Positions 21,545-51,409 of a stretch of 64,000 nt of DNA are shown piece by piece (positions within the stretch are counted from its first letter, which is position 1; each line of letters starts with the position of its first letter). Made by a program: the position numbers and the translations under genes. The stretch lies in the IMG/VR virus record IMGVR_UViG_3300025030_000045, one strand, 5' to 3'. Below the pieces are notes generated by a model. That model ran no database searches. It worked only from the letters and a program-made list of their open reading frames with translations, and had not been told where the DNA came from. This DNA is from a virus.

Positions 21545-21592
21545 TCACCATGAAGATATAAATACCTTTAAACGGAGGTATCTTCATGGTGA
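21545..21592 (+). promoter_or_regulatory. Start-codon-sequestering hairpin with embedded late promoter
   Basis: Perfect 14-bp IR TCACCATGAAGATA/TATCTTCATGGTGA; TATAAATA at 21557. Confidence 0.8.
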
Positions 21593-22371
21593 TACAAGAT
21601 AAACCACATTCGTATTTAATTACACATTTACAGACAGGCGATCGTTATGTTGGAATAGTATTAAAAAGAGGGAAGACATTATTTGACAGATTTGAAGAAC
21701 ATATGACGAGAAGAGGCGCCCTTGGTTTTATTCCTTATCTTGAAGATGGTTTTTCGAATGACGATTTTTCCATATCTCTAATCAGTTATTATGATTCTAG
21801 GTATGAGGCTGGTAAAGATGAAACGAGATTAATCAAATCGTTAAAACCAGAAATTAATAACAACTGTGGTGGTAGTTATGACTGGGTGCACTACAAACTT
21901 CGCGGTTTTTGTTGGTTATCTTTTAGCGGACTTCGCCGCAAAATAAACAGCACACCAATTCAACGTAGAATAGATTCTTTATCTTTTACTCAATACGAGA
22001 ATGATTTTGATTATGATGGTCGTCATAACCGTGGTGGAGAATATGTAATTCTGTTAAACAGATTCGGTAGGGACCACACAAAAATTTTAAGTAATGATAA
22101 TTGGAAGAATGGTAGAAAAAAATATAAACAAAGAATGAACAAAAAAGAATTTACTGATGCTGAAAAATTGTCATATAGTAAAAGAGATGCAATGGTTAAG
22201 AATATATGGGAAGGCCGCGACGAAACCACCAGAAAAACAATAGCAGCGAATGGTTTATCAATAATGAATGCAAAAATTTGGGCCTGTGAACATTGTGGGT
22301 TCATAACAACAAAAGGTAACTACGGGAGATGGCATGGAGATAAATGCAAGCATAAAAATAAAGTCAATTAA
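21586..22371 (+). mobile_element. Free-standing homing endonuclease (GIY-YIG-like) between the intein halves
   Basis: SYLI...YVG...R..EH; C-terminal CEHC...RWHGDKC. Confidence 0.75.
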
Positions 22372-25504: not shown

Positions 25505-26467
25505 ATGGACATGTTCAATATGGCAAAGCAAAATCGTATTCTTGAAATTCAGGTTGGTTCACGTCTCTACGGAACGTCGAATGATGATCCGACCAAAGGC
25601 AAGTTGTCTGACACGGATTACTCTGGTGTGTTCGTAGCCGATCTCTCTTGTTACATTGGATTTAACCATGTAGAGGAGGTTGACTTTTCGAAGATCAGTA
25701 AACTCGAGAATGGTCAGAACGCCCCAGATGCAATTGATAAGAAGTTGTATGAAGTGAAGAAGTTCCTTCGTTTGGCGATGGATAACAACCCAAACATCAT
25801 TGAGCATGTTTTCGTCAATGAAAAGAACATTGTCTATTCAAATCATTGGGGCAAAGAGATTCTTCGTTATGCAAAATTATTTCCGCATAAAGGATGTTTT
25901 GAGAAATTCATCGGTTATGCAACCTCACAGAAGCACAAGATGATTATCAAACGTGATAACATGGAGTTCATTGAGGCGGCAATCGAGTTCTTTTCTAAAC
26001 AAGACCCCAAATCTCTAATGGCAGAACACAAACAAATGTTCGGTTTGTGTAAGTTTAAATTCAACAACAACCATGTTACGATTGGCGACATGGCGATTCA
26101 ATTGAACATCAATGTCAAGCGGGCATTGGAACAATTGAATGAACGTAAAGACAAATTTGGTAGTCGCCATGAGCTCGTATCAAAGCATGGTTACGATACG
26201 AAATTTGCATCGCATCTTATTCGTTTATTGAAGGAAGGAGAAGACCTTCTCAAGTATGGTGAATTGACGTTCCCACTGCCACAGGCCGAGCTTATTCTTG
26301 ACATCAAGCAGGGTAAATACTCTGTAGAAGAAGTTATGCATATGGCAACAATGACCGAGGATGACATGCGATGCGCGCTGAACGAATCAAAGCTACCAAG
26401 TGGTCCTCGTGTATGGAACATCGAACAATTATTGCTTCAGATCATTCGTGGACATCATAATTTTTAA
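25505..26467 (+). CDS. Pol-beta-superfamily nucleotidyltransferase (RlaP-like)
   Basis: GSRLYGT...SDTDYSGVF, NPNIIE, YDTKFASHLIRL. Confidence 0.85.
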   Translation: MDMFNMAKQNRILEIQVGSRLYGTSNDDPTKGKLSDTDYSGVFVADLSCYIGFNHVEEVDFSKISKLENGQNAPDAIDKKLYEVKKFLRLAMDNNPNIIEHVFVNEKNIVYSNHWGKEILRYAKLFPHKGCFEKFIGYATSQKHKMIIKRDNMEFIEAAIEFFSKQDPKSLMAEHKQMFGLCKFKFNNNHVTIGDMAIQLNINVKRALEQLNERKDKFGSRHELVSKHGYDTKFASHLIRLLKEGEDLLKYGELTFPLPQAELILDIKQGKYSVEEVMHMATMTEDDMRCALNESKLPSGPRVWNIEQLLLQIIRGHHNF

Positions 26468-27470: not shown

Positions 27471-28145
27471 ATGAAATTTTCTGACACAGAACTCGGCATT
27501 CTCAAAAACTTTGCCGGCATCAATCCTTCAATGGTCATCTATCCTGACCGCCTTGAAGTCATCAACAATACCAAGACGATTGTTGGGAAGTATAAGTTCG
27601 ACAATCCCTACGGATTTGACTCTTTCGGTATTTATGAAGTGACAGAGTTGCTTCAGGCCGTCGGTGCCTTCAAGGATGCGGACATTGATGTTCAGACAAA
27701 ACGTCTTGTCATTAAAGATGGTGGAGCAAAGATCACCTATTACACCACACCGTCTGAACTCTGCCCCAATGTCCCGGACATTGATAAGAAGTTTGCTACT
27801 GTTGATTGCGAGCTTGACTTCTCTTTGCCCGCCGAAAAGCTTGCAACGATCTTCAAGATGGCATCTGTCCTGAAGGCGGAGTTTGTTTTCTTCGAGACCG
27901 ACGAGAAAGACAACGGCATTCGTATCACTGTTGCCAAGGAAAAGGATTCGACAGCAAACGCATTTGACATCGTCATTCGCGAAGGCATCCGTTCCAACAC
28001 TCTCGGTAAAGGTGTCATCAAGATGGCCGTCTCCGAACTCAAGATTCTTCCGGGTGACTATGATGTCAAAATCTCTTCAAAGAAAATCACCAAATGGGGC
28101 TCTTACACCGGCGTTGAGTATTACATCGGATGTAATGTCATTTAA
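27471..28145 (+). CDS. gp45: Sliding clamp
   Basis: LKNFAGINPS, FGIYE, LPGDYDV.IS; synteny with gp44 and gp62. Confidence 0.9.
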   Translation: MKFSDTELGILKNFAGINPSMVIYPDRLEVINNTKTIVGKYKFDNPYGFDSFGIYEVTELLQAVGAFKDADIDVQTKRLVIKDGGAKITYYTTPSELCPNVPDIDKKFATVDCELDFSLPAEKLATIFKMASVLKAEFVFFETDEKDNGIRITVAKEKDSTANAFDIVIREGIRSNTLGKGVIKMAVSELKILPGDYDVKISSKKITKWGSYTGVEYYIGCNVI

Positions 28146-28237: not shown

Positions 28238-29179
28238 ATGGAGAAGATTGGCACAAGTTCGCTTTGGGTTGAACGTTATCGACCACAGACAATGAATGAT
28301 GTGATTGCACCAGCAACAGTTCATAAATTGTTCAAAGAAATTAAGAAAACCAATGAAGTACCGAACCTAATGTTTTATGGTTCGGCGGGGCTCGGCAAGA
28401 CCTCGTCGGCAAAAGCAATCGCCAACGAAATGGGGATGGACCTGCTCTACATCAACGGTTCTCTTCAAACGCAAGTTGAGGTTATTCGTAATGATGTTAT
28501 GCAATTTGCATCTACGAGTTCGCTGATGGGTGGAAAGAAACTTGTCATCCTTGACGAGATGGATCGTATGTCAGGAAATGCACAAGACTCCATCAAAGTT
28601 CTCATGGAACAGATGGAATCAAATGCTCGTTTTATTATCTGCACAAACAACCTTCAGAAAATCATTGACCCTATCCACTCTCGTTGCCAAATGATTTCTT
28701 TCAACTATGGACCCAAGGTTCAGGATGAAATCATGTTGAACTACTTCAAAAGAGTATGCTTCATTCTCGAGAACGAAAAGGTTGAATATGACAAGCAATC
28801 AGTTGCAACCCTCGTAAAGAACTTCTTCCCTGACTTCCGCAAAACAATCGGCGCACTTCAAAAATTCTCAAGTATGAATGACGGAAAGATCACGGCATCG
28901 GTTCTTGCTGTTAGTGACAATTCCTATATGTCCGAACTGATCCCAGCGATGAAGGCCGGTAAGTTTGCAACCGTTCGTAAGTTGTGTACTGAAATTGATA
29001 CAAGTTCTTTCTATACGACCTTCTATAAGGAAATTGATAGTCATATTAAAGACGTATCGTTGCTAGACATCATTCCAATCCTCGGACAGTATAACTATCA
29101 GCATTGTTCATGTGTTGACTCAGAGGTCAATCTGGTTGCTTGTGTCACCGAGATCATGAAGGTCGCACAATGGAAGTAA
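28238..29179 (+). CDS. gp44: Clamp loader large subunit
   Basis: LWVERYRP, GLGKT, ILDEMD, SRC. Confidence 0.93.
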   Translation: MEKIGTSSLWVERYRPQTMNDVIAPATVHKLFKEIKKTNEVPNLMFYGSAGLGKTSSAKAIANEMGMDLLYINGSLQTQVEVIRNDVMQFASTSSLMGGKKLVILDEMDRMSGNAQDSIKVLMEQMESNARFIICTNNLQKIIDPIHSRCQMISFNYGPKVQDEIMLNYFKRVCFILENEKVEYDKQSVATLVKNFFPDFRKTIGALQKFSSMNDGKITASVLAVSDNSYMSELIPAMKAGKFATVRKLCTEIDTSSFYTTFYKEIDSHIKDVSLLDIIPILGQYNYQHCSCVDSEVNLVACVTEIMKVAQWK

Positions 29180-29180
29180 A

Positions 29181-30029
29181 TTAGATTCGATTAATTTCCC
29201 ACCCCTCACAATTAGCGGTCGATGGATCTTTGAGTTTTCTTTTAAATTTTATGATTCCATGGCCCGCATGTCTAATCATGGTTGTGAATGGTAGTTTGTT
29301 TTCTAAACAGAATGCAGAAAGTTCGCCATGTAATTCAAATGTTTCTCCTGATGGCGATGTTAAAAGAAAGTCTCCCGCCTTTGGATTATTTTTGCCTTTA
29401 GCAAGGCCCTTAATCTTTCTTACTTCTGACATTTTTCTTTTATGTTCATCGCTTTTTGGTCTCTGCATTTTATCAATATGTTCTTTTGATCCAAACACGG
29501 CCCTGTTAGGATTTCTTGCCTGAATACGTATTGTTCTTATTTGTTTTTGTTTTGTTGTTCTTATTTGTTTTGGTGTTCTTGGTTTCTTTATTATAATTGA
29601 ATATCGTTTAATTTGGGCGAGTTTCATGTTTGCTTTGTGTTCTTCTGACCATATTCTTCCCTTATTACTTTTAGACACCTTAGAATATATTTCTGATTTC
29701 ATTGGGTGTTGGGAATTCGTATCTCCTCCATCCCCACCCATAGTCATATTATAACCACAACAATCAGGGAGTCCCAAATATGTGTGATATTTCTGAATAT
29801 AAAAACATTCCATTTCATTGAGCATTTCAACGGGACCTTCATAAAGTGTTTCATATATAAAGTTTTCTCTACCATGTTTTTGTATAGCACGATAAAAAAC
29901 TCTCGTTGGTGAATTTTTTAATGCATTTTGAAAATGACCCTCGATATATGAATCTATATCTTGTTTTGTTTTTCCGATATAAGATTTATTGTTTATCGTA
30001 CACGTTACTTTGTATATAAAACCGTTCAT
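29181..30029 (-). mobile_element. GIY-YIG (Seg-like) homing endonuclease with NUMOD3 repeats
   Basis: GFIY...YIGKT, GYNMTMGGDG, SEEHK; inserted antisense between gp44 and gp62 with its own TATAAATA. Confidence 0.88.
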
Positions 30030-30504: not shown

Positions 30505-30948
30505 ATGATTCGTTATTCAAAGGTTAGAGATGTTAAAGATATCGAACGCGGTACCCCAAAGTCAGCAGGATTAGATTTCTTCGTTCCTAATGACGTAATG
30601 ACGATTACACTTGAAGGTGGTGAACGTGCCCTGATTCCTTCAGGCATCCGTGCACAAATTCCCGAAGGCCATGCACTGATCTTCTTCAACAAGTCGGGAG
30701 TCGGTTCAAAATTCGGCCTTGACATTCTTGCATGTGTTGTAGATGAAGATTATCAAGGAGAAATCCACCTCAATGTTGTTAACACCGGCAACGATACGGT
30801 CTACATTGGGCCGGGAATGAAACTCGTACAAGGGGTTCTTATCCCAGTACTTTATTCTAAACCTATGTTAGTTTCTGATGGTGAACTTTTTACTAGCGAA
30901 ACAGAACGCGGGGCGGGTGGTTTCGGTAGCACCAATAAGGAAGGTTAA
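30505..30948 (+). CDS. dut: dUTPase
   Basis: SAGLD, KSG, VDEDYQGE, RGAGGFGST. Confidence 0.93.
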   Translation: MIRYSKVRDVKDIERGTPKSAGLDFFVPNDVMTITLEGGERALIPSGIRAQIPEGHALIFFNKSGVGSKFGLDILACVVDEDYQGEIHLNVVNTGNDTVYIGPGMKLVQGVLIPVLYSKPMLVSDGELFTSETERGAGGFGSTNKEG

Positions 30949-31517: not shown

Positions 31518-34028
31518 ATGGCAAAGAGTTATCTGAATGTTACACAAGTCGGTAGAGATGTCATCTATCATCGCTACATTGAAGACGGTGAACGAAAGGA
31601 AGAACGAATCAACTTTCGTCCGTTTCTTGGTGTAGACGCATCTCCGGGTGCAAAAACAAGTTTCACTACGATCCACGGAAAACCAATTGAGCATCGAGTC
31701 TTCGAAAGTATTTCCGAGATGCGAAATTGGAAAAAGGAAAACGGTGATTACATTGATATTCACGGCGACATTAGTCCGCTGTATCAATTCATCGCATTGA
31801 ATTATCCAGGGCAGGTTCTCCCTCAGATGAATCATATGCGTATCTTTAACCTTGACGTGGAGGTACAGTGCACGAAGGGTTTCCCAAAACCCGAAGATGC
31901 AGCTTGGCCGATATCCGCATTGACTGTTGAAGAAATCATCAGTGGAAAAATCACAGCATTCGGCTATAAAGAAAATTACATCCCAACAGAAGATGATGTT
32001 ACTTATATCTTCTGTGAAGACGAAAAGGATTTGATTATCAAGTTCGTTGATTTCTGGTCGTCTGCGTATCCTGATATCTACACCGGGTGGAACACTGAGG
32101 GATTTGACATACCATACATCGTCACTCGTATCAACAAGATTATGCCGACGAATTATGTTCTTCAACTTTCACCGATTCGGAAAGTATCGGCGCATAAGTA
32201 TACCGACAACTTTGGTAACGAGCAGATCGGTTACTCAATTGAGGGCATCGTTCATTATGATTACAAAAACCTCTATGAGAAATTCTGTGTTGAACCAAGA
32301 GAACAGAAGTCTCTGTCATATATTGCAAAAGTTGAATTAGGCGATGACAAGTTAGACTATGACGGGCCACTGAACGAGTTGTATGAAAATGATTTTCAGA
32401 CATACATGTCATACAACATCAAAGACGTTCGGTTGGTGACAGCGATTGATAAGAAGCGTAACTATCTTGCACTTGCTATCACGATGACCTACATGGCGAA
32501 ATGTGATTTCAAGGACGTCTTTGGTACAGTTGGTATCTGGGATGCATATCTCTACAACATTCTGCTGTCAAAAAAGATTCTTGCCCCACCGAAGAAATCA
32601 AACATCAAAGGTCAGTTCCCTGGTGGATTCGTTGAGGACCCAAGACGTGGCCTTAACTACTGGGTTATGGTACGAGATATCGCATCTTCATATCCAAACT
32701 CTATCATCACATATAACATGTCTCCAGAGACAATTGTTGATGAATCAATTCTACCAGATGAACTCAAGAACATCGCCATGCAGTTCGGTAATATTGAAAG
32801 CTGTCTTGACCCCGATGTTCTTATGGAAAGAGTACAACCCGTCTTGGACAGATATGATGTCTGTATGGCACCAAACGGAACATTCTATCGTCGTGACAAG
32901 ATCGGATTCATTCCAGAAATCGTTGCTGAAATTTTCGCTGGTCGTAAAGGTGCAAAGAGATCAATTAAGGAACTTGATGTATTAGAGAAGACACCTGACA
33001 TTAAGAACCAAATTGCTTCACTTGATGCAATTCAGGGAGCATTTAAGGTATTCATGAACAGTCTTTACGGTGCGATGTCAAACGAATGGTTTAGATATTT
33101 TGACCTTCGTATCGCCGCCGCCATTACATCAGCAGGTCAGACATCCGTTCGTGGTGCTGCAAGATACATTGAAAAGAAACTCCCGGATGTCAAAAACATT
33201 TACACAGACACCGACTCCGTTTTCCTTGACATGGTTCCGACTCTTAATAAACGTTTTGGGGATGAACTACCAGACAATGAAACGGTCGTACACTTCCTGT
33301 TGAAATATAGTGACATGGTTCTTGATCCTGTCCTCAAGGAGTTCTTCAACAAGTTGACGGATGGTCTTAACACAAAACAGAAGACTCTGACGATGGAGCA
33401 TGAATCTATCTCAAACGTCTGCTTGTTCCGTGAAAAGAAAATGTATGCCATGCGGTTGCTTGAGAACGAAGGTACATTCTACTTCGACAAAACGAAACTG
33501 AAGATCAAAGGCATCGAAGTGGTGCGGACATCAACACCGCAATTTGTTCGTGATGCCCTTAAACGAACACTTGAGTTAATCTTCGAAACGGCCGATCAGA
33601 AAGCCGTTAAGGATTATCTTGATTCACAACATGTTATCTTCAAGACATTGCCATTTGAGAAGGTTGCATTCCCTCGTGGTGTCAACGAATTCAACAAGTA
33701 CATTGGTCAAACGAAAGGTGTTCCGTTAGCACCAAGAGCCGCCATTGTCTTTAACAAATTCGTTAAGATGATGAATCTTGAAGATAAGTATCAACTGATA
33801 CACGAAGGCGATAAAGTTAAATACTGCTATCTCAAAGAACCAAATCGAGTTGGCTCTAATGCCATTGCTTGTTTAGATAAGTTCCCCGTTGAGTTTGATC
33901 GAATGTGTCCGATTGATTATGACCTTCAGTGGGAGAAGGCTTATATGAATCCAATGGAGAAGATCTTTGAACTGATCGGTTGGTCAATGAATAATAAAGC
34001 AGTCAGTTTAGAAGATTTTTTCTCCTAG
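31518..34028 (+). CDS. gp43: Family B DNA polymerase
   Basis: Exo motifs DVE, GWNTEGFD and YNIKD; Pol motifs DIASSYP, K...NSLYG and YTDTDS; C-terminal SLEDFF. Confidence 0.97.
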   Translation: MAKSYLNVTQVGRDVIYHRYIEDGERKEERINFRPFLGVDASPGAKTSFTTIHGKPIEHRVFESISEMRNWKKENGDYIDIHGDISPLYQFIALNYPGQVLPQMNHMRIFNLDVEVQCTKGFPKPEDAAWPISALTVEEIISGKITAFGYKENYIPTEDDVTYIFCEDEKDLIIKFVDFWSSAYPDIYTGWNTEGFDIPYIVTRINKIMPTNYVLQLSPIRKVSAHKYTDNFGNEQIGYSIEGIVHYDYKNLYEKFCVEPREQKSLSYIAKVELGDDKLDYDGPLNELYENDFQTYMSYNIKDVRLVTAIDKKRNYLALAITMTYMAKCDFKDVFGTVGIWDAYLYNILLSKKILAPPKKSNIKGQFPGGFVEDPRRGLNYWVMVRDIASSYPNSIITYNMSPETIVDESILPDELKNIAMQFGNIESCLDPDVLMERVQPVLDRYDVCMAPNGTFYRRDKIGFIPEIVAEIFAGRKGAKRSIKELDVLEKTPDIKNQIASLDAIQGAFKVFMNSLYGAMSNEWFRYFDLRIAAAITSAGQTSVRGAARYIEKKLPDVKNIYTDTDSVFLDMVPTLNKRFGDELPDNETVVHFLLKYSDMVLDPVLKEFFNKLTDGLNTKQKTLTMEHESISNVCLFREKKMYAMRLLENEGTFYFDKTKLKIKGIEVVRTSTPQFVRDALKRTLELIFETADQKAVKDYLDSQHVIFKTLPFEKVAFPRGVNEFNKYIGQTKGVPLAPRAAIVFNKFVKMMNLEDKYQLIHEGDKVKYCYLKEPNRVGSNAIACLDKFPVEFDRMCPIDYDLQWEKAYMNPMEKIFELIGWSMNNKAVSLEDFFS

Positions 34029-40055: not shown

Positions 40056-40781
40056 ATGTCAACCAAAGATAGTCTCGGAGATCGTATGAAAGGCTTCTAT
40101 GAAGCCAGGTCAAAAACATATTTAGCTCGAAGAACACCGGTCATCCTGCGTCTTGATGGGAAAGCATTCCACACGTTCACTCGTGGTTGTGTGAAACCGT
40201 TTGATGAACGCCTACAAGGTGCAATGGAAGCGACTGCAAGATTTCTTTTAGAAAACATTCAAGGGGTCAAGTTGGCATACACCCAGTCTGACGAGATCAC
40301 CCTGCTGTTGACTGACTATGATCGTCTTGAGACAGACGCCTGGTTTGATTACAATGTGCAGAAGATGTGTTCGATTGCCGCGAGTATGGCGGGCGTTAAG
40401 TTCACGTTAGAGTATGCAGATGATGACACTCATTTGTGTGATGTCGACCCAGCATACTTTGATTGCCGCGCATTCAACATTCCGAAAGAAGAAGTCAGCA
40501 ACTGTTTTTATTGGCGGTGCCTTGACTGGGAACGGAATTCGGTTCAGATGTTGGCACAGGCTCACTATTCGGCTAAACAACTTCATGGCGTATCATGTGC
40601 AATGGCAAAGGACATGTTAATCTGTCAGAAGAATATCAATTGGAATGAATTGGCCGATAAGTGGAAGTATGGTTCATTCATTCAACGTGATGAATTCGGT
40701 GATGTATCAATATCATCGGTTAACCTCAAGAATGATCGTTCATGGATTGACGAACTCGTAAACAGAGGTGAATATGTTTAG
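40056..40781 (+). CDS. Thg1-like tRNAHis guanylyltransferase / 3'-5' polymerase
   Basis: LGDRMKGFYE, RLDGKAFHTF, YTQSDEI, FDCRAF, RNS. Confidence 0.92.
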   Translation: MSTKDSLGDRMKGFYEARSKTYLARRTPVILRLDGKAFHTFTRGCVKPFDERLQGAMEATARFLLENIQGVKLAYTQSDEITLLLTDYDRLETDAWFDYNVQKMCSIAASMAGVKFTLEYADDDTHLCDVDPAYFDCRAFNIPKEEVSNCFYWRCLDWERNSVQMLAQAHYSAKQLHGVSCAMAKDMLICQKNINWNELADKWKYGSFIQRDEFGDVSISSVNLKNDRSWIDELVNRGEYV

Positions 40782-41253: not shown

Positions 41254-42666
41254 ATGTCTCTTTTTACACCAACGAATATCCAACCGCTTGATCCAACGAA
41301 AGAAAATGTCGTCTGCTTCATCAATAAGAATGCAGAGAATTTTAGGGATCATTGGGGATTTGCATTTCCGATCATCGATGCGCTGAAGGAAAAGTACAAC
41401 CTGCTTTTTGTTGTGCTCAATGATCGGACATTCCCAACTCTTTATCCTAACTGCTTTGTGTTTAACAACAAAGAGTTAACCCGCATCAATGAAACCGAAT
41501 TTAAGCGAGTAAAGGAATCAGACAATTCTCGTGATCATAATCAATCAATCCTAGAACGGGAGTTCGAACACTCGTTTGGGCAATTCAAAATTCACCGCAT
41601 CATTCTGCTCCAAGATTATATGTTTGCACTTCCGTTGATTCCGTATGTCCCCGCCAAAAAGCACCGAGAACTCCATGATATGCAAAACGAGTACTTTGAT
41701 TATGTTGGTGACGACAACGAACGAATGAATATCATTGATGAGACGAATGCATCAATCGTAGAAAACTTCAACGAACGTGTCAGCGTCATCGCATTCTCAA
41801 TGTGGGATAAGAACCTCTTTTCCAACCTTGTGTTGTGGATGTACAAGAAAAATAAAGAACACTTCAAGATGCTCTATACATCAATCATCGATCCCGGCAT
41901 CTTCTTCGCATTCTTTGAGATGAACGGAATTCCACTCACAAATTATTACTTCGTAGATGACAAACGTGGCACCCGTAATCTTTCGGCATTTCCTTTGGCT
42001 GAACTTCAACATCTTGTCTATGAAGAACCAATAAAGGATGATTTTGATTTCTTCGGAGCATCGCTACCAACTGAAATCGAAAAGGACAAAGATTTCATTT
42101 TCTTCGGTTCGATCTTTTATGAAAAGGGTCCACGTTTGACAATGTGGGACACCTTTCTTCGCGACCTTGATGCATCAAATGCCGAACTCTATATACCGCT
42201 CAAAGCAAACGGTGTGTACTACGGAAAACTTCAACAAGGTTGGCTGGACAAAGCAAAGACGATCGGTGGGCGTGTTTATGATGAAGTTGTCAATCATCCG
42301 TGTTATAAGGGTTACCTCCACCCAGATAATCTTTATGCACAGATTCAACGCTTTAAGTATTCGCTTATCCTACGATGCGTGTCGACATTTGATTCGTTGA
42401 ACTTCCGCCCCGTACTTTATGCCAAGTACAACATCCTTCCTTTCTTTGATGTTGGGTATGATCCTGAATATCTTCAGATTCCAAAGGAGATTCAAGATAA
42501 GCTTATCGTAAAGAATTCCGTTGACATTATGGCGAAAATGGATTATTATAACAGTCACGATGCCGAACGGCTCGCCCTCCTCAAATCCCTCCGCGATCAT
42601 TTCAATGTAGACTTTTGGCTCAATAGACAATGGAGTAATGATGACATCACAAAATACTATTCTTAA
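41254..42666 (+). CDS. Putative GT-B glycosyltransferase (BGT-like C-terminal domain)
   Basis: C-terminal FIFFGS...KYSLIL...LPFFD..YDP parallels 45993..47282. Confidence 0.5.
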   Translation: MSLFTPTNIQPLDPTKENVVCFINKNAENFRDHWGFAFPIIDALKEKYNLLFVVLNDRTFPTLYPNCFVFNNKELTRINETEFKRVKESDNSRDHNQSILEREFEHSFGQFKIHRIILLQDYMFALPLIPYVPAKKHRELHDMQNEYFDYVGDDNERMNIIDETNASIVENFNERVSVIAFSMWDKNLFSNLVLWMYKKNKEHFKMLYTSIIDPGIFFAFFEMNGIPLTNYYFVDDKRGTRNLSAFPLAELQHLVYEEPIKDDFDFFGASLPTEIEKDKDFIFFGSIFYEKGPRLTMWDTFLRDLDASNAELYIPLKANGVYYGKLQQGWLDKAKTIGGRVYDEVVNHPCYKGYLHPDNLYAQIQRFKYSLILRCVSTFDSLNFRPVLYAKYNILPFFDVGYDPEYLQIPKEIQDKLIVKNSVDIMAKMDYYNSHDAERLALLKSLRDHFNVDFWLNRQWSNDDITKYYS

Positions 42667-43288
42667 CCTCTGGGACTTTGACGGTACGCTTTTTGATACC
42701 GAACCAGCCCTCTATAAGGTATACAGTCAGGCCCTCCGAGAAGTCACCGGACATATACTTACACCCGAAGTGTGGCAAAGTATTTTTGGAAAAAGTGCAT
42801 ATGCACTTGAAGAACATTACGGCATCTCGCATGAAACGATGGTGAAGGTCCGTGATCGTAAATACGAACTCTATCCACACACACTGTACGATGGCATTTT
42901 CATGATCAATCATGTCAGGCAATTCTGGGATCACCCATTGGCGCTGAATTATGTTTGTACACATACCAATCCTGATGTTGCCGAGACGATACTCGATAAG
43001 TTCGAGATTCGCCCTTGGTTCAAACGTGTCTATGGGCTCAAGGATGTCGGTCATAAGGCAAAACCAGACCCCGCTATGTATCTCTTGGCGATGGGTGTTG
43101 GTATCATCGAGTCGCATGGAATTATCAAACACATAAATATTTTTGAAGATTCGGACTTTGGTCTGGGGGCTGCGGCGAATACGAAAAATGCATTTGATGA
43201 AGAACTCTACAAAGCATTTCCACCCGAGACTAAACTGACAATTTATAAAGTCACCAATGAAGGTATTAATGAATATGAAGCTCCTTAA
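42638..43288 (+). CDS. HAD-family phosphatase/mutase
   Basis: DFDGTL, KPDP, FEDS..G. Confidence 0.88.
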   Translation: MMTSQNTILNLWDFDGTLFDTEPALYKVYSQALREVTGHILTPEVWQSIFGKSAYALEEHYGISHETMVKVRDRKYELYPHTLYDGIFMINHVRQFWDHPLALNYVCTHTNPDVAETILDKFEIRPWFKRVYGLKDVGHKAKPDPAMYLLAMGVGIIESHGIIKHINIFEDSDFGLGAAANTKNAFDEELYKAFPPETKLTIYKVTNEGINEYEAP

Positions 43289-44249
43289 AGGCGGGTCAGC
43301 CTCATCCGTTTATTTAGATGAAATACATAATGAAATCCTTAAGACCGTTAGAGTTACCGACACTAACGGTTTTAATCATCTTCGTGACCAGCACTGCTGG
43401 ATGGCCTATCACAAAGAAGCCCTCCCTAACTATTTTCCGCATATAGGCGACGACTTCTTCAAAGATGGTCTGTATTGCTATCGGATGGAATTTGTTGAGG
43501 GTAAAACTCTCGACAAGATGCTTGATAATAAATTCATCGCAAGAAATTTACTTGAAGATGTAATGCACACCGTGGTGAGTATATCAGACATTGATTTCAT
43601 TCCAAAAGGAAACACGACATTCACGACATACATTGATCGACTCAAGGGTCACCTCCGCCGTCTGAAGAAAGAGACGATCTTTGTTGATATGTTGATGAAA
43701 AAAGAATTTATCCTCGTAGAGAACGGTGTTGAGAAAGTCATACCAAACATTGACTTTATTAAATTCATTTCTATGTTGACATCAATGACATCGTACATGG
43801 ACAAGCAGTACTCAAACTGCCACGGCGACCTCACTCTTGAAAACATAATCATAAACGAGTATGAAGATTTTGGCTGCAACCGCATCAAGTTCATTGATGA
43901 CAACTTTATCTTCAACGGGTGGAATTCATATCTGCTTGATTATTCAAAAATATTTCAAAGTCTTCATTTTAATTATGAAGAAACATTTTCTGATTCGTCG
44001 TCGTTAATCATTGACGATGGTAAATATTTGTTGACTTATAACACAGAAAATGTTAAAATTAAAGAATACTTATTTGGACATGGTTGTGGATTTTTTACCG
44101 ACGCCGTTCGTGATGCGTCACTCGTACTTGAGGTAACGCATTACATTCGTATGCTTATCTATAAACTCGCCATCAGTCAAAAGGATTTCATCGTTGCATA
44201 TATTCGCACCTGCCAAGCCTATCACGAATTAAAGAAAAGAGGATCATAA
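43275..44249 (+). CDS. APH/choline-kinase-family phosphotransferase
   Basis: LKGGS, MEF..G, HGDLTLENII, FID, D..KI.QS. Confidence 0.82.
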   Translation: MKLLKGGSASSVYLDEIHNEILKTVRVTDTNGFNHLRDQHCWMAYHKEALPNYFPHIGDDFFKDGLYCYRMEFVEGKTLDKMLDNKFIARNLLEDVMHTVVSISDIDFIPKGNTTFTTYIDRLKGHLRRLKKETIFVDMLMKKEFILVENGVEKVIPNIDFIKFISMLTSMTSYMDKQYSNCHGDLTLENIIINEYEDFGCNRIKFIDDNFIFNGWNSYLLDYSKIFQSLHFNYEETFSDSSSLIIDDGKYLLTYNTENVKIKEYLFGHGCGFFTDAVRDASLVLEVTHYIRMLIYKLAISQKDFIVAYIRTCQAYHELKKRGS

Positions 44250-45152
44250 ATGGAAGATATCAAATATCTAATGTTATCACCAACAAGCAGGTGCAACCTT
44301 GCTTGTGAGAAGTGTAACAGAAAAGGTTCGGGAACCGATTTCCCCTGGGATGATTACAAGGCCATTATTTTTTCATCCTTCCCCAACTTGAATTTTGCAA
44401 AACTTCAAGGAATGGGCGAACCATTCATGGCCAAGGACCTCGGTCGGATGGCAAAAGAACTTAAGGATCATTATCCAGGAATCAAGACTCTCACAATCAC
44501 CAACGGAACTCTTAATTACAATGCTCCGGCATTTGATGATGTCTATAAGAATCTTGATATGCTTTATGTCTCGATTGATTCTGTGAACAATATCAGCGAA
44601 ACGATCGGCGCTCATGCCGTTCTTGCAACGCTTTTTGAGAAGTCAAAGGAGTTTGGGTTCCAACTATATGTCAACACTATTCTTTTTCCGTGGAACCTCA
44701 AGTGCATTGCCGATGTGAAGAGGCTTGTTCAAGAGTATCCTGGTGTGAAGATGCGTGTCCAACATCAACAATGTTGGAATGATGTATCAAACATCGAATC
44801 AGTGGACATCGAAGTCTTCAATAAATTCGTTGCACCGTTGTTTGATGATGTTATGGAATACATCGGCCGTGATGATTTTTATTATACCGAATGTGATTGG
44901 AATACTAAGCGGATTCAGATTGACGAGCTCGGTAACATCCGTCTCTGTTGTCTGAAAACTGATAACTCTATCATCGGTCAAATCACCGATCTTGGACTAT
45001 ATAAAGCTGTTGCTGAACGGATCAAAGCAAGAATATCTGTTGATGCGTGGCCGATGGTGATTCGTCCACATTTTGGTCTTTGTGAGACATGCACATTCGT
45101 TCAGCTGAACCCAATTAACAAACAGATCTTGAAGATTTTGGAGGAAAGATGA
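44250..45152 (+). CDS. Radical SAM protein with SPASM/Twitch-like C-terminus
   Basis: CNLACEKC, GMGEP, TNG, C...G...CC...CETC. Confidence 0.85.
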   Translation: MEDIKYLMLSPTSRCNLACEKCNRKGSGTDFPWDDYKAIIFSSFPNLNFAKLQGMGEPFMAKDLGRMAKELKDHYPGIKTLTITNGTLNYNAPAFDDVYKNLDMLYVSIDSVNNISETIGAHAVLATLFEKSKEFGFQLYVNTILFPWNLKCIADVKRLVQEYPGVKMRVQHQQCWNDVSNIESVDIEVFNKFVAPLFDDVMEYIGRDDFYYTECDWNTKRIQIDELGNIRLCCLKTDNSIIGQITDLGLYKAVAERIKARISVDAWPMVIRPHFGLCETCTFVQLNPINKQILKILEER

Positions 45153-45856
45153 TTCCAAAGGCTGCTCTTATTCTTGCGGCGGGCGCGTCAACCCGCTTCG
45201 GAAAAAATAAACTTCTTACTAAGATCGGCGACAGAACTCTTCCACAGCAATGTGTTGAGTTTGCGATCAATAACGGTATGGATGACGTCTATGTCACGAT
45301 CAGTAAAAGAGATTTCTTTTTCCTCAACGATCATAAGACATTGACACATCCAATAATCGAATCATTGTCTCCATATGATTGCCTTATTAACCTTCACTAC
45401 CAATTCCAGAATGAAGAGGAGAAGGGGCCGGGAGCCGCTATCAAGGTTTGGCAAGGTATCATAAATAAACCTTTCGTTTGTCTGTTCGGTGATAACTATT
45501 ATTCGGGTTCTCTTCCTTACATGGATTTCAATGAATATGATTGCTTTGTGAGTTATCGTGAACTTGAAAAGAATTCGCGGAACTTACAACTTGCATATCT
45601 TGACGGTAACATCGTCATCGAGAAGCCCCATGCATTCACCGAAGGAAAGTTCTTCTGCGGCTATACGGCATTCAGCGAAAAGGTGTTTGACCAACTCAAT
45701 AACTGCCTCATATCTGGACGCGGCGAATATGAAATCACTGATCTGATTAACTTTATGGATCGGAGATGTTTCCTTTTCAATAGTCTCGTGTGGGGTGACA
45801 TTACTTTTGCTGGAGATGAAGCAAAAATCGTTGATATGATTGGAGGAAAGAAATGA
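45149..45856 (+). CDS. Sugar-phosphate nucleotidyltransferase (RmlA-like)
   Basis: LAAGASTRF..NK, LFGDN, EKP, SGRGEYEITD. Confidence 0.85.
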   Translation: MIPKAALILAAGASTRFGKNKLLTKIGDRTLPQQCVEFAINNGMDDVYVTISKRDFFFLNDHKTLTHPIIESLSPYDCLINLHYQFQNEEEKGPGAAIKVWQGIINKPFVCLFGDNYYSGSLPYMDFNEYDCFVSYRELEKNSRNLQLAYLDGNIVIEKPHAFTEGKFFCGYTAFSEKVFDQLNNCLISGRGEYEITDLINFMDRRCFLFNSLVWGDITFAGDEAKIVDMIGGKK

Positions 45857-45992
45857 ATTTTTGGCAATTTTTAAATCTGAGACCTGTACTATCATTCTTT
45901 ATTATTTTTATCTTTTGTGCAACCATTATTGATGTCGTGCATTCACTTTCTACGAAAACAGTAGAATGCAAGCATGGATGGGTGGTGCCCAA

Positions 45993-47282
45993 GTGAAAGT
46001 TGGATATGGGAAAATAGGCAAGAGCATTCTTTTTAATGAATCGCTGTGGGCAGCGATCGGCGGAGACTGTGAGGCGCCGGCCGTCATCACCTCTGTTGCT
46101 CGCTATAACCCCGATGACACTTTCTATCTGATCGGTAAGTCTGACTTCTCTCGATTGTCAGATGCTAAACGAAAAGAGGTTGCACCGAATAACAACATCA
46201 TTGATGTTTGGGGTGATTTCCGCCGTGGAGATAATGTCACTGACTTTGTCGTCAATTGGTTTGAGAAGAATAATGTCAAACTTGACACCGCATTCTTTTA
46301 TGGTGGCCCAGCCGGTAATGCAAACATGCCTGATAAGATCAAGACGGTAAAGGGAGATCGGATTGCTAAGGTTCTTGAGTGCTTTGAGAACTATGTCGGT
46401 CCTATCGCTCACTATCTGAACGTATCTGGGATTGACTATTTTACTCTAACGCCGGACCCGCGATATCATCCTATTCGTGCACGAGACCTCTACAATATCT
46501 CGAAGTTTGCACTGTCTCAATTCAATTCAAAGGACATGCAAGTCAAGCATATCGTCAACTATGAGGATCAGTCATATCTGTTCTCTAAGGTGCCGACATT
46601 CTATACCGCGCTTGAAACGGTGTTCCTCATTGATAAAAAGAAACCCGACCTTCTTGAACTTGCCAAACATAAAAAGAAGAAGTTCATGGTGGTGTTGAAT
46701 GAGGGCGGCAACGGTGGATTGAGCCGCGGTCCTGAGCTTAAGCGCTGGGTACTCAATCACCTTGAGGACGTTGACATTTACGGTAAGTGGTCTGACGAGT
46801 GGATGAAGGATACTCGATTCAAAGGATCGGTGAAATTCCAAACTCTTCAGGATATGTTGCCTGATGTTAAATACACCTTCATCATACCGATTCAGCGTGG
46901 TTGGGCAACGATGAAGTTCTGGGAAGTATTACAATATGGCATCATTCCGTTTATGCATCCTTGGTACGACGAGCAGATGAATCTTGATGTTCCAGAATTC
47001 ATTCGTGTGGAAACTCCCGAAGAACTATTTGAAAAAATTGAGTTTTTGGAGAACAACCCGGCTGAATACACCGCCCTTCTCGAGAAACTTAACCAAGTTC
47101 TCAAGAATAAATATTACACCGGTGAACATATCAACAACCTCATCATGAAGTCGTGCTACAGGGTTGCCGGAAAAGATGCCAGTTTATATGAATTAACCTC
47201 CGAGAAAATGTTGCAGATTGATTCTGGTCTATCGGTGAAGATGAAAGCCGAAGGAACCGATCTGTCTGACTTCTTCTCCTAA
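45993..47282 (+). CDS. Phage glycosyltransferase (putative DNA-modifying, BGT-like)
   Basis: DPRY, IYGKW, KYT..IP...T.KFWE...G.IPF.HP.YD; C-terminal LSDFFS. Confidence 0.65.
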   Translation: MKVGYGKIGKSILFNESLWAAIGGDCEAPAVITSVARYNPDDTFYLIGKSDFSRLSDAKRKEVAPNNNIIDVWGDFRRGDNVTDFVVNWFEKNNVKLDTAFFYGGPAGNANMPDKIKTVKGDRIAKVLECFENYVGPIAHYLNVSGIDYFTLTPDPRYHPIRARDLYNISKFALSQFNSKDMQVKHIVNYEDQSYLFSKVPTFYTALETVFLIDKKKPDLLELAKHKKKKFMVVLNEGGNGGLSRGPELKRWVLNHLEDVDIYGKWSDEWMKDTRFKGSVKFQTLQDMLPDVKYTFIIPIQRGWATMKFWEVLQYGIIPFMHPWYDEQMNLDVPEFIRVETPEELFEKIEFLENNPAEYTALLEKLNQVLKNKYYTGEHINNLIMKSCYRVAGKDASLYELTSEKMLQIDSGLSVKMKAEGTDLSDFFS

Positions 47283-47905
47283 TGAAAGGATGCTCAATGT
47301 CAAAAATTTTTACAGATGCATATGGCCAGGAAATTTCGATTGGTGATCTCATTTTCCATTCACCAAGAACAAAATACGGCCGGGCACGTATTGGTGTTGT
47401 CATTAGTACTAATATGCACGGTGTACGATATGTTAAAGCCAACGTAATTCAAGAACCGGGCTTACCCGACAACTTTAGTATTTCTTCTTGTAAGAGATCA
47501 CGTAACTGTATTGTGATGAAATTCGACAGTATTTCAAATCAGAACAGCAAAGAGATGACAACACTTGCTGGGTTAGTTGAACATGCTGTTGGGTTGATTA
47601 ACAAAAGAGAAAAGTTCAATCACAAAGACCAACTCGGACAAGACATTAATGTCGGTGACTTCGTTGTTTATGGGGCGAGTGCTTTTGGTGGTGGAGCGGT
47701 GACCCGTTGTGGCATCGTTACAAAGCTTAACCAAACATCCATTACTTACTTGACGATGATGCTCAAGTGGACCGGAAGAGAGTATAAAAATAAACCCAAA
47801 CTCACCTGTGCTTTTGCCCCCGGGCAAGCCGTCATCATCAAGAATAAAGAGTATGACACCCCAGAATTAAGGGCCCTCAAGGAGGCATTCAAAAATGTCA
47901 AGTAA
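47282..47905 (+). CDS. Hypothetical protein with two SH3/KOW-like repeats
   Basis: DAYGQEISIGD and DQLGQDINVGD. Confidence 0.55.
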   Translation: MKGCSMSKIFTDAYGQEISIGDLIFHSPRTKYGRARIGVVISTNMHGVRYVKANVIQEPGLPDNFSISSCKRSRNCIVMKFDSISNQNSKEMTTLAGLVEHAVGLINKREKFNHKDQLGQDINVGDFVVYGASAFGGGAVTRCGIVTKLNQTSITYLTMMLKWTGREYKNKPKLTCAFAPGQAVIIKNKEYDTPELRALKEAFKNVK

Positions 47906-49142
47906 AAAGAAGAATATCAAATGGGCGTCGATCATCCCTCTCGCCGGCGGTATGTCAATCGGTATGGAACAGGCAATCGGTCACAAACCAGAATTCATCA
48001 TTAGCTTCCCGGGTTTCCAGGCTAATGATGCTCACCTTCGTAACTATTGGCCGGATGTCCCTTATCATATCATCGACGAGAACTTCGACAAGGGTGCGGT
48101 ATTCAAACCGGGCAGTATTGACATCGTAAACTCCGTGTGTCCCTGTGCAGGACTTTCGATGTTGAACACAGGTGGCAACAAAAATTCTGGTAAAGCTCGT
48201 GGATCAGATGCCGTCCAAAATCAGCATATGTACAATTCATCTCGCTATGTTCTTGAGCATATCCAACCGAAAGTTCTGTTCGGTGAAAACGCCCCGGGAC
48301 TTATCACCAAGATCGGTGAAGGCGTTCAGGCTGAACTCTACAAGATTGCTGAAGAATTCGGTTATTCATTCTCGATTGTCAAGACGAGCACCAAGTATCA
48401 TGGCATTCCCCAGAATCGTATTCGTACATTCTTCTTTTTCTGGAAAGCGGACTCTGCACCGATCCTCAATTACTACGATCGCACGAAAGAGACCAAGAAC
48501 ATCGTTGATTATCTCAAGGACATCCCTGCAGATGCTTCTTATCAGGACACCAATGATGTCCTTCGTGAAAAGATGTTCAAGAACTACACCTTCCTATTCA
48601 TGCGGGACAAGTACGGCGCCGACAATTGGCGAGAAGTCATGTGGAAAGAGAACAGCAAAACAGTCTGGGCTCATGTCTGTAAGAACAATCTCGTCGAAGA
48701 ACTGAAGGAATTCTCCTACAAGATCAATGACCGTCGTGGTATCAAAGAGACCGAACATGCGATCAAAAAGTTTGCTGCTGGACTCGGTATCTGGGATGGT
48801 TCTGTTCATCTGTTCAAAGACGAGATCAATGCTGTCGTCGGTCGTAACATGGCTGACTCTATTCACCCGACAGAAGATCGTTATATGAATGCCCGTGAAT
48901 ATCTCCACCTCATGGGACACCCTCATGACTATGAACTCACTGACATCAAGTGGCAACACCACCTCACACAAAATGTCCCCACCTGCACATCAAGAGATTG
49001 GACATATGAGGTTATTAAATTTATCGAAGGTAAACTTCCTTTCTCTGGTGTCAGGGACCTTCGTCAGGATAACATCAAGCAGTGCATCAACACAAAAGGT
49101 GTCAATGTCGAGAACGAGTTCTCATCTGACTTTTTTGCTTAA
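47895..49142 (+). CDS. C5-cytosine DNA methyltransferase
   Basis: PLAGG (motif I variant), CPCAGLS (IV), ENAPG (VI), PQNRIR (VIII), QNVP (X). Confidence 0.85.
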   Translation: MSSKKKNIKWASIIPLAGGMSIGMEQAIGHKPEFIISFPGFQANDAHLRNYWPDVPYHIIDENFDKGAVFKPGSIDIVNSVCPCAGLSMLNTGGNKNSGKARGSDAVQNQHMYNSSRYVLEHIQPKVLFGENAPGLITKIGEGVQAELYKIAEEFGYSFSIVKTSTKYHGIPQNRIRTFFFFWKADSAPILNYYDRTKETKNIVDYLKDIPADASYQDTNDVLREKMFKNYTFLFMRDKYGADNWREVMWKENSKTVWAHVCKNNLVEELKEFSYKINDRRGIKETEHAIKKFAAGLGIWDGSVHLFKDEINAVVGRNMADSIHPTEDRYMNAREYLHLMGHPHDYELTDIKWQHHLTQNVPTCTSRDWTYEVIKFIEGKLPFSGVRDLRQDNIKQCINTKGVNVENEFSSDFFA

Positions 49143-49857: not shown

Positions 49858-50544
49858 ATGAACAGAATAAAGGTTAATCTGATAGCGCATTCTGACCCAA
49901 CGGCTGTCATCAATGCAATGGGCAAGCCGTATAAAAATGAAAAGGTCACAACGGAACTCATCAAGAGAATCTGTCTCGGTGAGAAGCTTGCAGAACGACA
50001 TGGTTCTGTTCTTGAACATATTACTCTAACATGGGAGGTTCTCGGTTCATCTCGTCTTGAACTCCAAGAACACATGCGACACCGCATTGCATCTCCGACC
50101 GTCGAGAGCACTCGTTATGTTCTTGATAAGATGATGCTGCAGTATGAAAATCGCGGTTGGGCATTTGCTCCGGTCAAAGATTACTTCGTGTTTCCTGACC
50201 TATCAAACACCGATTGGTCAGACGAGAAGAAGGCTAAGTTCGATGAGATGTATGCCGAGAAGTGTCGGGCTAATCTCGACAGCATTTATGCTTTCTTCAA
50301 AACATTTTACACCACGAAGAAAGATAACGACACGATCAAGTATGTCCTTCCTGAAAACCTCCGGACGAACTTCACATTTACTTTGAATTTTAGATCATTT
50401 ATCAACTTCATTCGGCTGCGCAACTCTTCAGCCGCACACTTTGAAATACGATACATAGCCAGATTGATGTTAGAAGAACTTAAACAGACATGGTTGTGGG
50501 AATTGATCGAAGATCAGTTTGACGAGGATCTTTGTCCCAAATAA
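49858..50544 (+). CDS. thyX: Flavin-dependent thymidylate synthase
   Basis: HGSVLEH, RHR-x7-STRY, N.RS..NF..LR, AHFEIR. Confidence 0.92.
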   Translation: MNRIKVNLIAHSDPTAVINAMGKPYKNEKVTTELIKRICLGEKLAERHGSVLEHITLTWEVLGSSRLELQEHMRHRIASPTVESTRYVLDKMMLQYENRGWAFAPVKDYFVFPDLSNTDWSDEKKAKFDEMYAEKCRANLDSIYAFFKTFYTTKKDNDTIKYVLPENLRTNFTFTLNFRSFINFIRLRNSSAAHFEIRYIARLMLEELKQTWLWELIEDQFDEDLCPK

Positions 50545-51409
50545 ACCACCCGACTGTGTTATGACCTTCCTGACTAATTCGAGTTGCTTTATCTGACAGA
50601 GAAATTTTACCTTTGTTTAAATTTGATTTTAGCATGGTCATAGATAGATTATTATTTTTCACAAAATCAGAAAAGCCATAGTGTACTATATGAAATTCTG
50701 AATTCGGGTCTATTAGATACCATGTTTTCTTTTTACCCGAATTCATTTTCATTTTATCACGACATTCCCCGGTTCTCTTTTTACCTTTGTTCGCGGCAGC
50801 AAGTTTCATTTTTGTTTCATCTGTATGATGTTTGCCGCTCATTGGGTTGTTGATTAACATCCTATTTCGCATATCATCAATTGCTCGCGGGTTCTCGTTT
50901 AGAAATTTCTTTCTACTGTCCGATTGTTTTATTTTTGTTTCTAAACTTCGGTGTTGGCCTCGACGTTTTTCAGCGGCAACTTTCCATGACTGTTTGTCAC
51001 GTAATGCGGTGGTACACTTGATTCTCTTAATGATGTCGTCTCTATTTGGATGATTGCTGATTGTGTCTCCACCATCGCCACCTTCGGTTATATTGAGGAG
51101 AGGACCATTATCACAAATTCTTCCTATATGTAATATCATAAATTTTTCATACTCTAGTGCAAGCTTTGATGAATTTCTATTTAATATGACCACATATGAA
51201 AGTGGGTCATATTTTTCTTTTATAATTTTCTTTATTTTTGCACGTTTCTTTGAATTTGGAAAACTGTCTACATATAGCGTATGATGTTTCCATCTGTTTG
51301 CCGTACCTTTACCAACGTAAAATGGTTCGAATAAAAATGACACATCAAGGCCATCATAATCGAATTTTCCCGGGCGTCTTGGGTCCACATAAACATAATT
51401 GTAATTCAT
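50480..51409 (-). mobile_element. GIY-YIG-like homing endonuclease with NUMOD3 repeats
   Basis: YVYVDPR...PFYVGKG...R...L.N.T.GGDGG; H(T/S).ETK repeats; converges on and overlaps the thyX end. Confidence 0.8.

Follow-up and report, generated by a model that had tools for sequence, protein, structure and literature searches.

The window analysed here is a 64,000-nucleotide (nt) stretch of viral DNA (IMG/VR virus record IMGVR_UViG_3300025030_000045), and the system in question is a gene cluster for putative DNA glycosylation at 41254-49142 on its plus strand. The cluster consists of nine open reading frames (ORFs) that run in one direction with overlapping or abutting ends, an operon-like arrangement (Table 1). 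The window proteins were scanned against Pfam, PHROGs, and NCBIfam. ORF coordinates and profile matches confirm the tightly packed run of glycosyltransferase (GT), HAD phosphatase, kinase, radical S-adenosylmethionine (SAM) enzyme, nucleotidyltransferase, second glycosyltransferase, and methyltransferase that had been described in an earlier, sequence-only reading of the window; the order and families given there were right, but two ORFs of 47 and 207 amino acids (aa) had been left out. The position of the 207-aa ORF is not conserved in relatives, and in sibling contig L002 it is divided into two ORFs. A nucleotide search of the cluster against phages returned a single 100-nt match only.

The window covers the replication/early part of a T4-like myovirus genome, with genes for the family B DNA polymerase, the clamp loader (gp44-type), topoisomerase II, a ligase that uses NAD, ThyX, and a gp45-type sliding clamp, the last of which lies directly upstream of the clamp-loader gene (28238-29179). 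T4-type neck, sheath, portal, and capsid genes were found downstream of the window in loci reached by walking, and near-identical contigs are present in groundwater and sediment metagenomes.

Table 1. Genes of the cluster and the two replication genes discussed with it (window coordinates)
Feature	Coordinates	Strand	Basis or remarks
GT1	41254..42666	+	470 aa, GT-B-type; weak Glyco_trans_1_2 match (Pfam)
HAD-family sugar-phosphate phosphatase	42638..43288	+	HAD_2 1.5e-15; DxDGT motif (DFDGT)
APH/choline-kinase-like (protein-kinase-fold) sugar kinase	43257..44249	+	HGDLTLEN...IDD motif; phrog_21938
Radical SAM enzyme with C-terminal auxiliary Fe-S (SPASM/twitch-type) domain	44250..45152	+	Pfam Radical_SAM
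Sugar-1-phosphate nucleotidyltransferase	45149..45856	+	NTP_transf_3 2.7e-8, NTP_transferase 1.2e-4; AAGxSTRF motif
47-aa ORF between nucleotidyltransferase and GT2	45853..45996	+	gene-finder call in L001-L004
GT2, C-terminal tail ...DLSDFFS	45993..47282	+	429 aa from gene-caller start; weak Glyco_trans_1_2
207-aa ORF, two similar halves	47282..47905	+	small PHROG families without assigned function; faint DUF7205
C5-cytosine DNA methyltransferase family enzyme, tail ...SSDFFA	47895..49142	+	DNA_methylase 73 bits
gp45-type sliding clamp	27471..28145	+	phrog_223 DNA polymerase processivity factor, 2.9e-38
Family B DNA polymerase, tail ...SLEDFFS	31518..34028	+	Pfam DNA_pol_B

The closest solved structure of GT2 is the T4 beta-glucosyltransferase (BGT). 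With an AlphaFold2 (AF2) model of the GT2 family (predicted local distance difference test, pLDDT, 92), BGT is matched at Z 22.9 in VIA (root-mean-square deviation 3.4, 312 residues aligned) and the next non-BGT GT-B entry at Z 19.7 (VIA), and Foldseek also ranks T4 BGT top. A profile of 30 GT2 homologues has BGT as its sole match among PDB sequences (E 1e-3, 21 bits). The invariant residues R245, K308, and E311 of GT2 align to R195, R269, and E272 of BGT, which in BGT bind the uridine diphosphate (UDP) sugar; the match covers these donor-site residues and not the catalytic Asp100. Pfam yields only Glyco_trans_1_2 for GT2, at 22 bits and under the cut-off, and the protein stays below the threshold of PF09198 (T4-Gluco-transf). 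Since it is sub-threshold in Pfam and its profile match has an E value of 1e-3, GT2 is a distant BGT homologue and not a curated member of PF09198. DNA is the likely target of this predicted transferase, gene context and a putative clamp-binding tail (see below) being consistent with a duplex carrying 5-hydroxymethylcytosine (5hmC) as its acceptor.

Homologues of GT2 are numerous, with hundreds in metagenomes and 344 confirmed loci in IMG/VR, and 82 GT2 loci were examined for gene order. A C5-methyltransferase adjoins GT2 in 79 of the 82, a ThyA homologue is found in 56, a fusion of nucleotidyltransferase and APH kinase in 49, and a deoxycytidine monophosphate (dCMP) deaminase in 41. The usual order is polymerase, ThyA homologue, dCMP deaminase, nucleotidyltransferase-kinase fusion, GT2, methyltransferase, clamp, and clamp loader. 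The GT2 core recurs widely. The cassette with the radical SAM enzyme was found in three phages. Pseudoalteromonas phage vB_Psh_XG4 (L098, PP712099.1, 100-6580) has ThyA(D), the Asp form of the ThyA homologue described below, the nucleotidyltransferase-kinase fusion, GT2, and the methyltransferase in the same order; this phage is cultured and unannotated and offers a ready experimental model. Enterococcus Denverviruses, a second group of cultured phages, carry ThyA(D), the nucleotidyltransferase-kinase, and GT2 but no methyltransferase, so that GT2 is independent of the methyltransferase. A literature search found no paper on Pseudoalteromonas phage XG4 and none on DNA modification in Denvervirus.

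In T4 and RB69, the C-terminal tail of the DNA polymerase binds the sliding clamp gp45. Among the 498 reading frames of the window (stop to stop, at least 50 aa), only three end in DFF[SA], namely those of the polymerase, GT2, and the methyltransferase. The tails co-vary between phages: all three are of the K[KQ][FY]F type in L005, and all three end in DDW, DW, or QW in L011 and L068, while other relatives have LEDFF or LEEF variants. A loose form of the motif is present in 18 of 23 polymerases, 36 of 52 methyltransferases, and 12 of 57 GT2s, compared with 31 of 667 unlabelled ORFs, none of 16 clamp loaders, and none of 34 deaminases. The enzymes for nucleotides and sugars have no such tails. 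When GT2 residues 350-429 were modelled together with the clamp trimer, the ipSAE was 0.64, against 0.00 for the best control, with a partner pLDDT of at least 45 and a run agreement of at least 57%. Of 78 solved complexes, 51 attain the ipSAE mark, and of 108 mismatched pairs, 2. The predicted interface involves GT2 residues 420-429 only, which face clamp residues 34-38, 102-111, 185-189, 204-206, and 218-222. A clamp-bound transferase has precedent, since the alpha-glucosyltransferase of T4 co-purifies with gp45, whereas the beta-glucosyltransferase does not (PMC13216743). On these grounds, GT2 and the methyltransferase appear to ride on the replication clamp. Copies of the polymerase tail on a BGT-like enzyme and on a C5-methyltransferase appear not to have been described before.

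These observations bear on the view that the transferases and the sugar genes act on something other than DNA, be it virion proteins, glycans of the host envelope, or small molecules, and that the methyltransferase is an unrelated anti-restriction function. GT-B enzymes are indeed promiscuous in their acceptors, GT4-type scores come close behind BGT for GT2, and about 65% of the phage GT contigs in a published survey have no neighbouring base-modification gene. However, no solved structure matches GT2 better than BGT, no other PDB sequence matches it, synteny with a dCMP hydroxymethylase homologue, polymerase, and clamp extends across the 82 loci, and the polymerase-like tail of GT2 co-varies with the tail of the polymerase itself, all of which make a non-DNA acceptor very improbable.

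With regard to the source of the modified base, the genome was walked beyond the window by exact-protein look-ups through overlapping loci, one of which (L093) overlaps the scaffold_103 locus L092 over 11,921 nt with 0 mismatches. About 50 kb downstream of the window, the same genome encodes a gp42-like dCMP hydroxymethylase homologue, a ThyA homologue of 294 aa (L093 6583-7467; motif RSNDIWFGVTYD) that is flanked by a Tmk-like kinase and a dCMP deaminase, the set lying about 2.5 kb upstream of gp32. Its best PDB matches are the CMP hydroxymethylase MilA (1.9e-24) and T4 dCMP hydroxymethylase (2e-21), whereas thymidylate synthases reach 8.5e-12 at most and the 5-hydroxy-dCMP synthase of HY126 reaches 1e-6. 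The position of E. coli ThyA N177, which determines the preference for dCMP versus dUMP, is Asp in all 40 distinct ThyA homologues neighbouring GT2, and a single additional ThyA copy, which has Asn there, is a conventional thymidylate synthase. The earlier reading had correctly noted that no dCMP hydroxymethylase or TET is visible in the window, where no ThyA homologue or TET was found among the ORFs scanned; beyond the window, the part of the genome that was walked holds a gp42-like gene, in L093. The idea that conventional cytosine activation is lacking is not supported, given the phage's own dCMP-specific ThyA homologue, Tmk-like kinase, and dCMP deaminase. PF12851 (TET) had no match in the records of five relatives, two of them complete, and control genomes were likewise without a match. 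A degenerate DNA pattern of the gp42-like motif found no match in JGI metagenomes, and a profile search with ThyA homologues returned more than 6,000 clusters, among which the phage's own gene was not singled out. The simplest reading of this gene content is pre-replicative formation of 5hmC, as in T4. As the genome encodes its own gp42-like dCMP hydroxymethylase, neither the methyltransferase nor the radical SAM enzyme would be needed for base activation.

A trimeric-type dUTPase is encoded in the window (30505-30948). Matches of the MazG or dUTPase_2 type were found in two of the five relatives and not in the complete genome G001. The complete 205-kb relative G002 (the L068 record) has a MazG-like pyrophosphatase at 81766-81915, which scores just under the cut-off (21.7 bits) and adjoins the GT cluster; it is a candidate dCTPase.

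The glycosylated base might also be other than 5hmC, either 5-hydroxymethyluracil (hmU), with the adjacent dCMP deaminase turning 5hm-dCMP into 5hm-dUMP and cytosine left free for the methyltransferase, or a base derived from 5-hydroxy-dCMP, as in RB69. A dCMP deaminase does stand beside the ThyA homologue in this genome and in 41 loci, a non-5hmC base would account for the retained C5-methyltransferase, and RB69-type enzymes also match MilA best. D169N is diagnostic of 5-hydroxy-dCMP synthases (PMC13326640). Against this, Asp169 is kept (motif RS-N-D) in the phage's own enzyme and all 40 relatives, so that the D169N signature is absent. T4 also carries cd, its dCMP deaminase, beside the hmC pathway, and ThyX is encoded in the window, so that dTMP would still be made. 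In addition, synthesis of 5-hydroxycytosine requires O2, whereas this phage carries two radical SAM enzymes. A base other than 5hmC is therefore considered improbable.

The first transferase, GT1, is a member of a virus-only family with 76 metagenomic homologues. Alignment to the GT2 family (hhalign) gives 96% probability over the C-terminal 131 columns of GT1, i.e., the donor domain, and its neighbours in the ESM Atlas are viral clusters, PF09198 T4-Gluco-transf among them. The earlier proposal that both transferases are BGT-like is thus upheld, for GT2 by fold and profile and for GT1 by the common donor domain and the T4-Gluco-transf neighbours. GT1 thus falls into the viral group of GT-B enzymes that also contains GT2, as a more remote member. 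It has no polymerase-type tail and occurs in few of the 82 GT2 loci (3 at E<=1e-5). A single-sequence scan of IMG/VR gave no match for GT1, nor did tblastn against cultured phages, and single-sequence PDB searches found none for GT1 or the kinase and only noise for GT2. GT1 probably adds a further or alternative sugar.

The HAD phosphatase, kinase, and nucleotidyltransferase form a sugar cassette. The phosphatase has weak similarity to beta-phosphoglucomutase-family and sugar phosphatases (NCBIfam) and is located at the same cassette position in L087, L099, and L007 (IMGVR_UViG_3300014204_000174). The kinase has no Pfam match, and its feature neighbours in the ESM Atlas are APH-like clusters; by structure, its counterparts are APH domains that are joined to NTP_transferase and/or HAD and come from phages, bacteria, and giant viruses (template modelling score by query 0.76-0.85). 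A kinase homologue is present in L007 (2e-23), and the split kinase and nucleotidyltransferase are common to the window and L007. The nucleotidyltransferase has been called RmlA-like; Pfam supports a nucleotidyltransferase, similarity to rmlA_long/Arch_glmU is weak, and the protein is equally MobA/MurU/LicC-like. All three enzymes are found fused to one another elsewhere. For HY126/RB69 it was reported that the kinase yields arabinose-1,5-bisphosphate, the HAD enzyme takes off the distal phosphate, and the transferase forms UDP-arabinose (PMC13326640), and contig 53 places heptose on 5hmC only when its HAD-APH fusion, cytidylyltransferase, and BGT-like GT-B are all present (bioRxiv 2023.12.21.572611). 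The proposal that the phage makes its own activated sugar for DNA glycosylation is supported by this cassette together with the BGT-like GT2 and the gp42-like gene. Its description as a new pathway applies to the added radical SAM enzyme, whereas the combination of HAD, APH-like kinase, nucleotidyltransferase, and BGT-like GT has been shown experimentally before.

L007 also has three extra transferase-like genes around the core (3697-4950, 9044-9988, and 16123-17052), which encode a GT9 heptosyltransferase-like protein, a 314-aa protein with a weak GT match, and a GT17-like protein, in addition to an anaerobic ribonucleotide reductase. The glycan of this phage is probably longer or different.

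The radical SAM enzyme was recognised by Radical_SAM of Pfam at 29.8 bits (cut-off 29.5); the SPASM part of its earlier label was not called by Pfam on the window protein, although homologues match SPASM. The CxxxCxxC motif (C15/C19/C22) and four C-terminal cysteines (C215/C233/C278/C281) are invariant in 21 family sequences. The family is rare, with three clusters below 1e-30 among 1.8 billion representatives. An AF2 model (pLDDT 89.6) matches BlsE (Z 17.9), SkfB (17.9), DesII (17.6), MoaA (17.5), viperin (16.6), anSME (15.9), and BtrN (14.2), which places the modelled enzyme among the SPASM/twitch enzymes, a group that includes tailoring enzymes of nucleoside sugars and nucleoside diphosphate (NDP) sugars. 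A BtrN-like label was dropped: the spacing of the auxiliary cysteines fits that of BtrN, yet BtrN ranks only 12th by fold (Z 14.2). Similar to BlsE, DesII, and BtrN, the enzyme has CxxxCxxC and a four-Cys auxiliary site, and members of its family are fused to DegT, SDR, or APH; unlike a close homologue of these proteins, it shares only 13-17% sequence identity with them, and its fold scores are tied with maturases of ribosomally synthesised and post-translationally modified peptides (RiPPs) and with MoaA.

The two closest homologues (43% and 39% identity) sit inside the same cassette in other phages, the order being HAD, kinase, radical SAM, nucleotidyltransferase, GT2, and methyltransferase in L087 and HAD, kinase, nucleotidyltransferase, and radical SAM in L099. 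In more distant members of the family, the fusion partner is an APH-like domain, an SDR, or a DegT aminotransferase, and a bacterial locus has the order DegT, radical SAM-APH fusion, GT, 236-aa ORF, and HAD. No counterpart of the cluster enzyme was found in five related records, two of which are complete genomes; this absence argues for a sugar-altering accessory that is not part of base activation. Of the two roles suggested earlier, sugar tailoring agrees with the position of the gene within the sugar genes, whereas oxygen-independent activation of the base is not supported. We infer that the enzyme would tailor the sugar.

The second radical SAM enzyme of the window (258 aa, MoaA/viperin-like, 59 bits; 13085-13861, plus strand) is not a close paralogue of the one in the cluster. 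The presence of two oxygen-sensitive enzymes in a phage suggests an anaerobic host.

The methyltransferase scores far above the DNA_methylase (PF00145) cut-off of 22 bits. Its catalytic motifs IV (PC; VCPCAGLS), VI (ENA in place of ENV; GENAP), and VIII (QxRxR; Q.R.RTF), together with QNVP, are invariant in 53 family members. Motif I, canonically the SAM-binding FxGxGG, reads IIPLAGG, and the family keeps I[VI]PLxGG at this site. If 5hmC fully replaced cytosine, this enzyme would have no substrate; action on cytosines left by incomplete replacement is a working guess, to which an hmU-based scheme and a non-methyl chemistry on 5hmC are alternatives.

It is also conceivable that the base is activated after replication, by the C5-methyltransferase making a hydroxylated or other reactive C5 group, in which the radical SAM enzyme might stand in for TET without a need for oxygen. 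Clusters of methyltransferase and GT with a TET-type oxidase are known, the methyltransferase adjoins GT2 in nearly all loci with an odd yet conserved motif I, the habitat is groundwater and sediment, and TET was seen neither among the scanned window ORFs nor in the records of five relatives (as in the control genomes). On the other hand, this phage has its own dCMP-specific ThyA homologue and kinase, as do relatives, and the radical SAM enzyme is absent from most phages with GT2 and methyltransferase. It travels instead with HAD, kinase, and nucleotidyltransferase, even in a bacterial sugar cluster without DNA context, and Enterococcus phage Planchet has ThyA(D), nucleotidyltransferase-kinase, and GT2 without any methyltransferase. 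Post-replicative activation is accordingly held to be quite improbable.

Taken as a whole, the cluster is best explained as providing the sugar half of cytosine hypermodification in the T-even style, with a clamp-docked GT2, and we give this explanation a probability of about 0.62. By homology, the gp42-like dCMP hydroxymethylase and the Tmk-like kinase would provide 5-hydroxymethyl-dCTP, and the replicated DNA would carry 5hmC. By precedent, the kinase, HAD, and nucleotidyltransferase would turn a phosphosugar of central metabolism into an NDP-sugar through the route sugar-nP, sugar-1,n-bisP, sugar-1-P, and NDP-sugar, which is also that of HY126/RB69 and of heptose activation. Remodelling of the sugar without oxygen may fall to the radical SAM enzyme, by oxidation, dehydration, decarboxylation, or epimerisation. 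GT2, docked on the sliding clamp via its polymerase-like tail, would move the sugar onto 5hmC of new DNA, and GT1 could attach a second or alternative sugar. The clamp-tailed C5-methyltransferase would most likely methylate cytosines that escaped replacement, which is the least certain step. On gene content and predicted models, a DNA-glycosylation system of known design is partly supported; its uncommon features would be the radical SAM sugar step, the clamp-tail mimicry on GT2 and the methyltransferase, and the conserved pairing of these two enzymes.

Several points weigh against this explanation. Most members of the GT2 family have no clamp tail (12 of 57 have one), the pLDDT of the partner itself is below 50 in the clamp model, and the score of that model may reflect memory of the solved RB69 clamp-peptide complex. 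The T4 beta-glucosyltransferase, i.e., the enzyme that GT2 resembles, is the one that did not co-purify with gp45 (PMC13216743). At E<=1e-5, no orthology could be detected between the separate kinase and nucleotidyltransferase of the window and the common nucleotidyltransferase-kinase fusion, and the fold matches of the radical SAM enzyme are tied between sugar enzymes and peptide maturases. The near-universal retention of the methyltransferase (79 of 82 loci) is unaccounted for by the model, and a dCTPase can be recognised in some relatives but not in one that is complete.

Compared with hmC glucosylation in T-even phages (in T4, the dCMP hydroxymethylase gp42, the kinase gp1, and the alpha- and beta-glucosyltransferases), the phage shares a dCMP-specific ThyA homologue with nucleotide kinase and dCMP deaminase, a BGT-fold transferase beside replication genes, and the presence of two transferases; its predicted transferase-clamp contact has a T4 precedent in alpha-glucosyltransferase and gp45. 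In contrast, T4 takes UDP-glucose from the host, whereas the window phage has genes of its own for activating the sugar and for a radical SAM step; the window BGT-like GT2 has a polymerase-type tail, whereas T4 beta-glucosyltransferase did not bind gp45; and T4 has no C5-methyltransferase.

The arabinosyl-5-hydroxycytosine system of RB69, DLP3, and HY126 (Afh genes, PMC13326640), which are T4-like phages as well, also contains a ThyA homologue, a Tmk-like kinase, HAD, an APH-like kinase, several GT-B enzymes, and a MurU/LicC-like nucleotidyltransferase that is kinase-fused there and in most GT2 relatives. However, the window phage keeps Asp169, it alone has the radical SAM enzyme and C5-methyltransferase, and no arabinose-5-P isomerase was seen in it. 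Contig 53, which combines a methyltransferase, 5mYOX(TET), and a GT and whose product is heptosyl-5hmC (bioRxiv 2023.12.21.572611), similarly clusters a C5-methyltransferase, HAD, APH-like kinase, nucleotidyltransferase, and BGT-like GT-B. In the window phage, by contrast, the ThyA homologue would most likely provide 5hmC prior to replication, the cluster has a radical SAM enzyme in addition, and TET/5mYOX was not seen in the window or in two complete relatives, the search controls also being without a match.

A more far-reaching version, which is tentative and somewhat unlikely, holds that the radical SAM enzyme yields a sugar unreported on DNA, without oxygen or NAD chemistry, and that the methyltransferase is a second replication-coupled writer, giving two C5 marks or a non-methyl chemistry on 5hmC. 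If so, a whole environmental T4-like lineage would decorate its DNA at the fork via polymerase-tail mimicry. DNA hypermodifications decide whether phage DNA can be read by restriction enzymes, CRISPR nucleases, and sequencing chemistries, and the enzymes involved become tools for epigenetic mapping. The cluster points to a radical SAM step in the synthesis of a DNA-bound sugar, which would fit anoxic hosts, and the copied clamp tail of the polymerase offers a simple sequence signature of the DNA-acting enzymes within the cluster. The pairing of BGT-like transferase and C5-methyltransferase is widespread and unstudied in phages of the hmC type, and its core is directly testable in the cultured vB_Psh_XG4.

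Some other genes of the window and its relatives deserve mention. A 283-aa protein (11396-12247, plus strand) has a GmrSD_N (DUF262) domain (2.8e-16), which forms the N-terminal part of type IV enzymes directed against glucosyl-hmC DNA; the protein could be a weapon against rival modified phages. L087 also encodes a PARP-domain protein (378 aa, 2797-3933) a few genes upstream of the cassette. The gene for the large subunit of topoisomerase II (21063-23611, plus strand) is split by an intein, with Intein_splicing matches at both junction ORFs, and two GIY-YIG homing-endonuclease-like genes are located on the minus strand, one between the clamp-loader genes (29181-30029) and one after ThyX (50480-51409). 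At 1049-1123 on the plus strand lies a tRNA gene whose anticodon is CTA (amber suppressor; ARAGORN label tRNA-Pyl); the late genes called in the walked loci showed no obvious in-frame stops. A gene for a Thg1-like tRNA-His guanylyltransferase (40056-40781, plus strand; phrog_4717 1.4e-83) is located shortly before the cluster, and an RlaP-type nucleotidyltransferase is encoded at 25505-26467 on the plus strand; together, these two enzymes suggest a capacity for tRNA or RNA repair.

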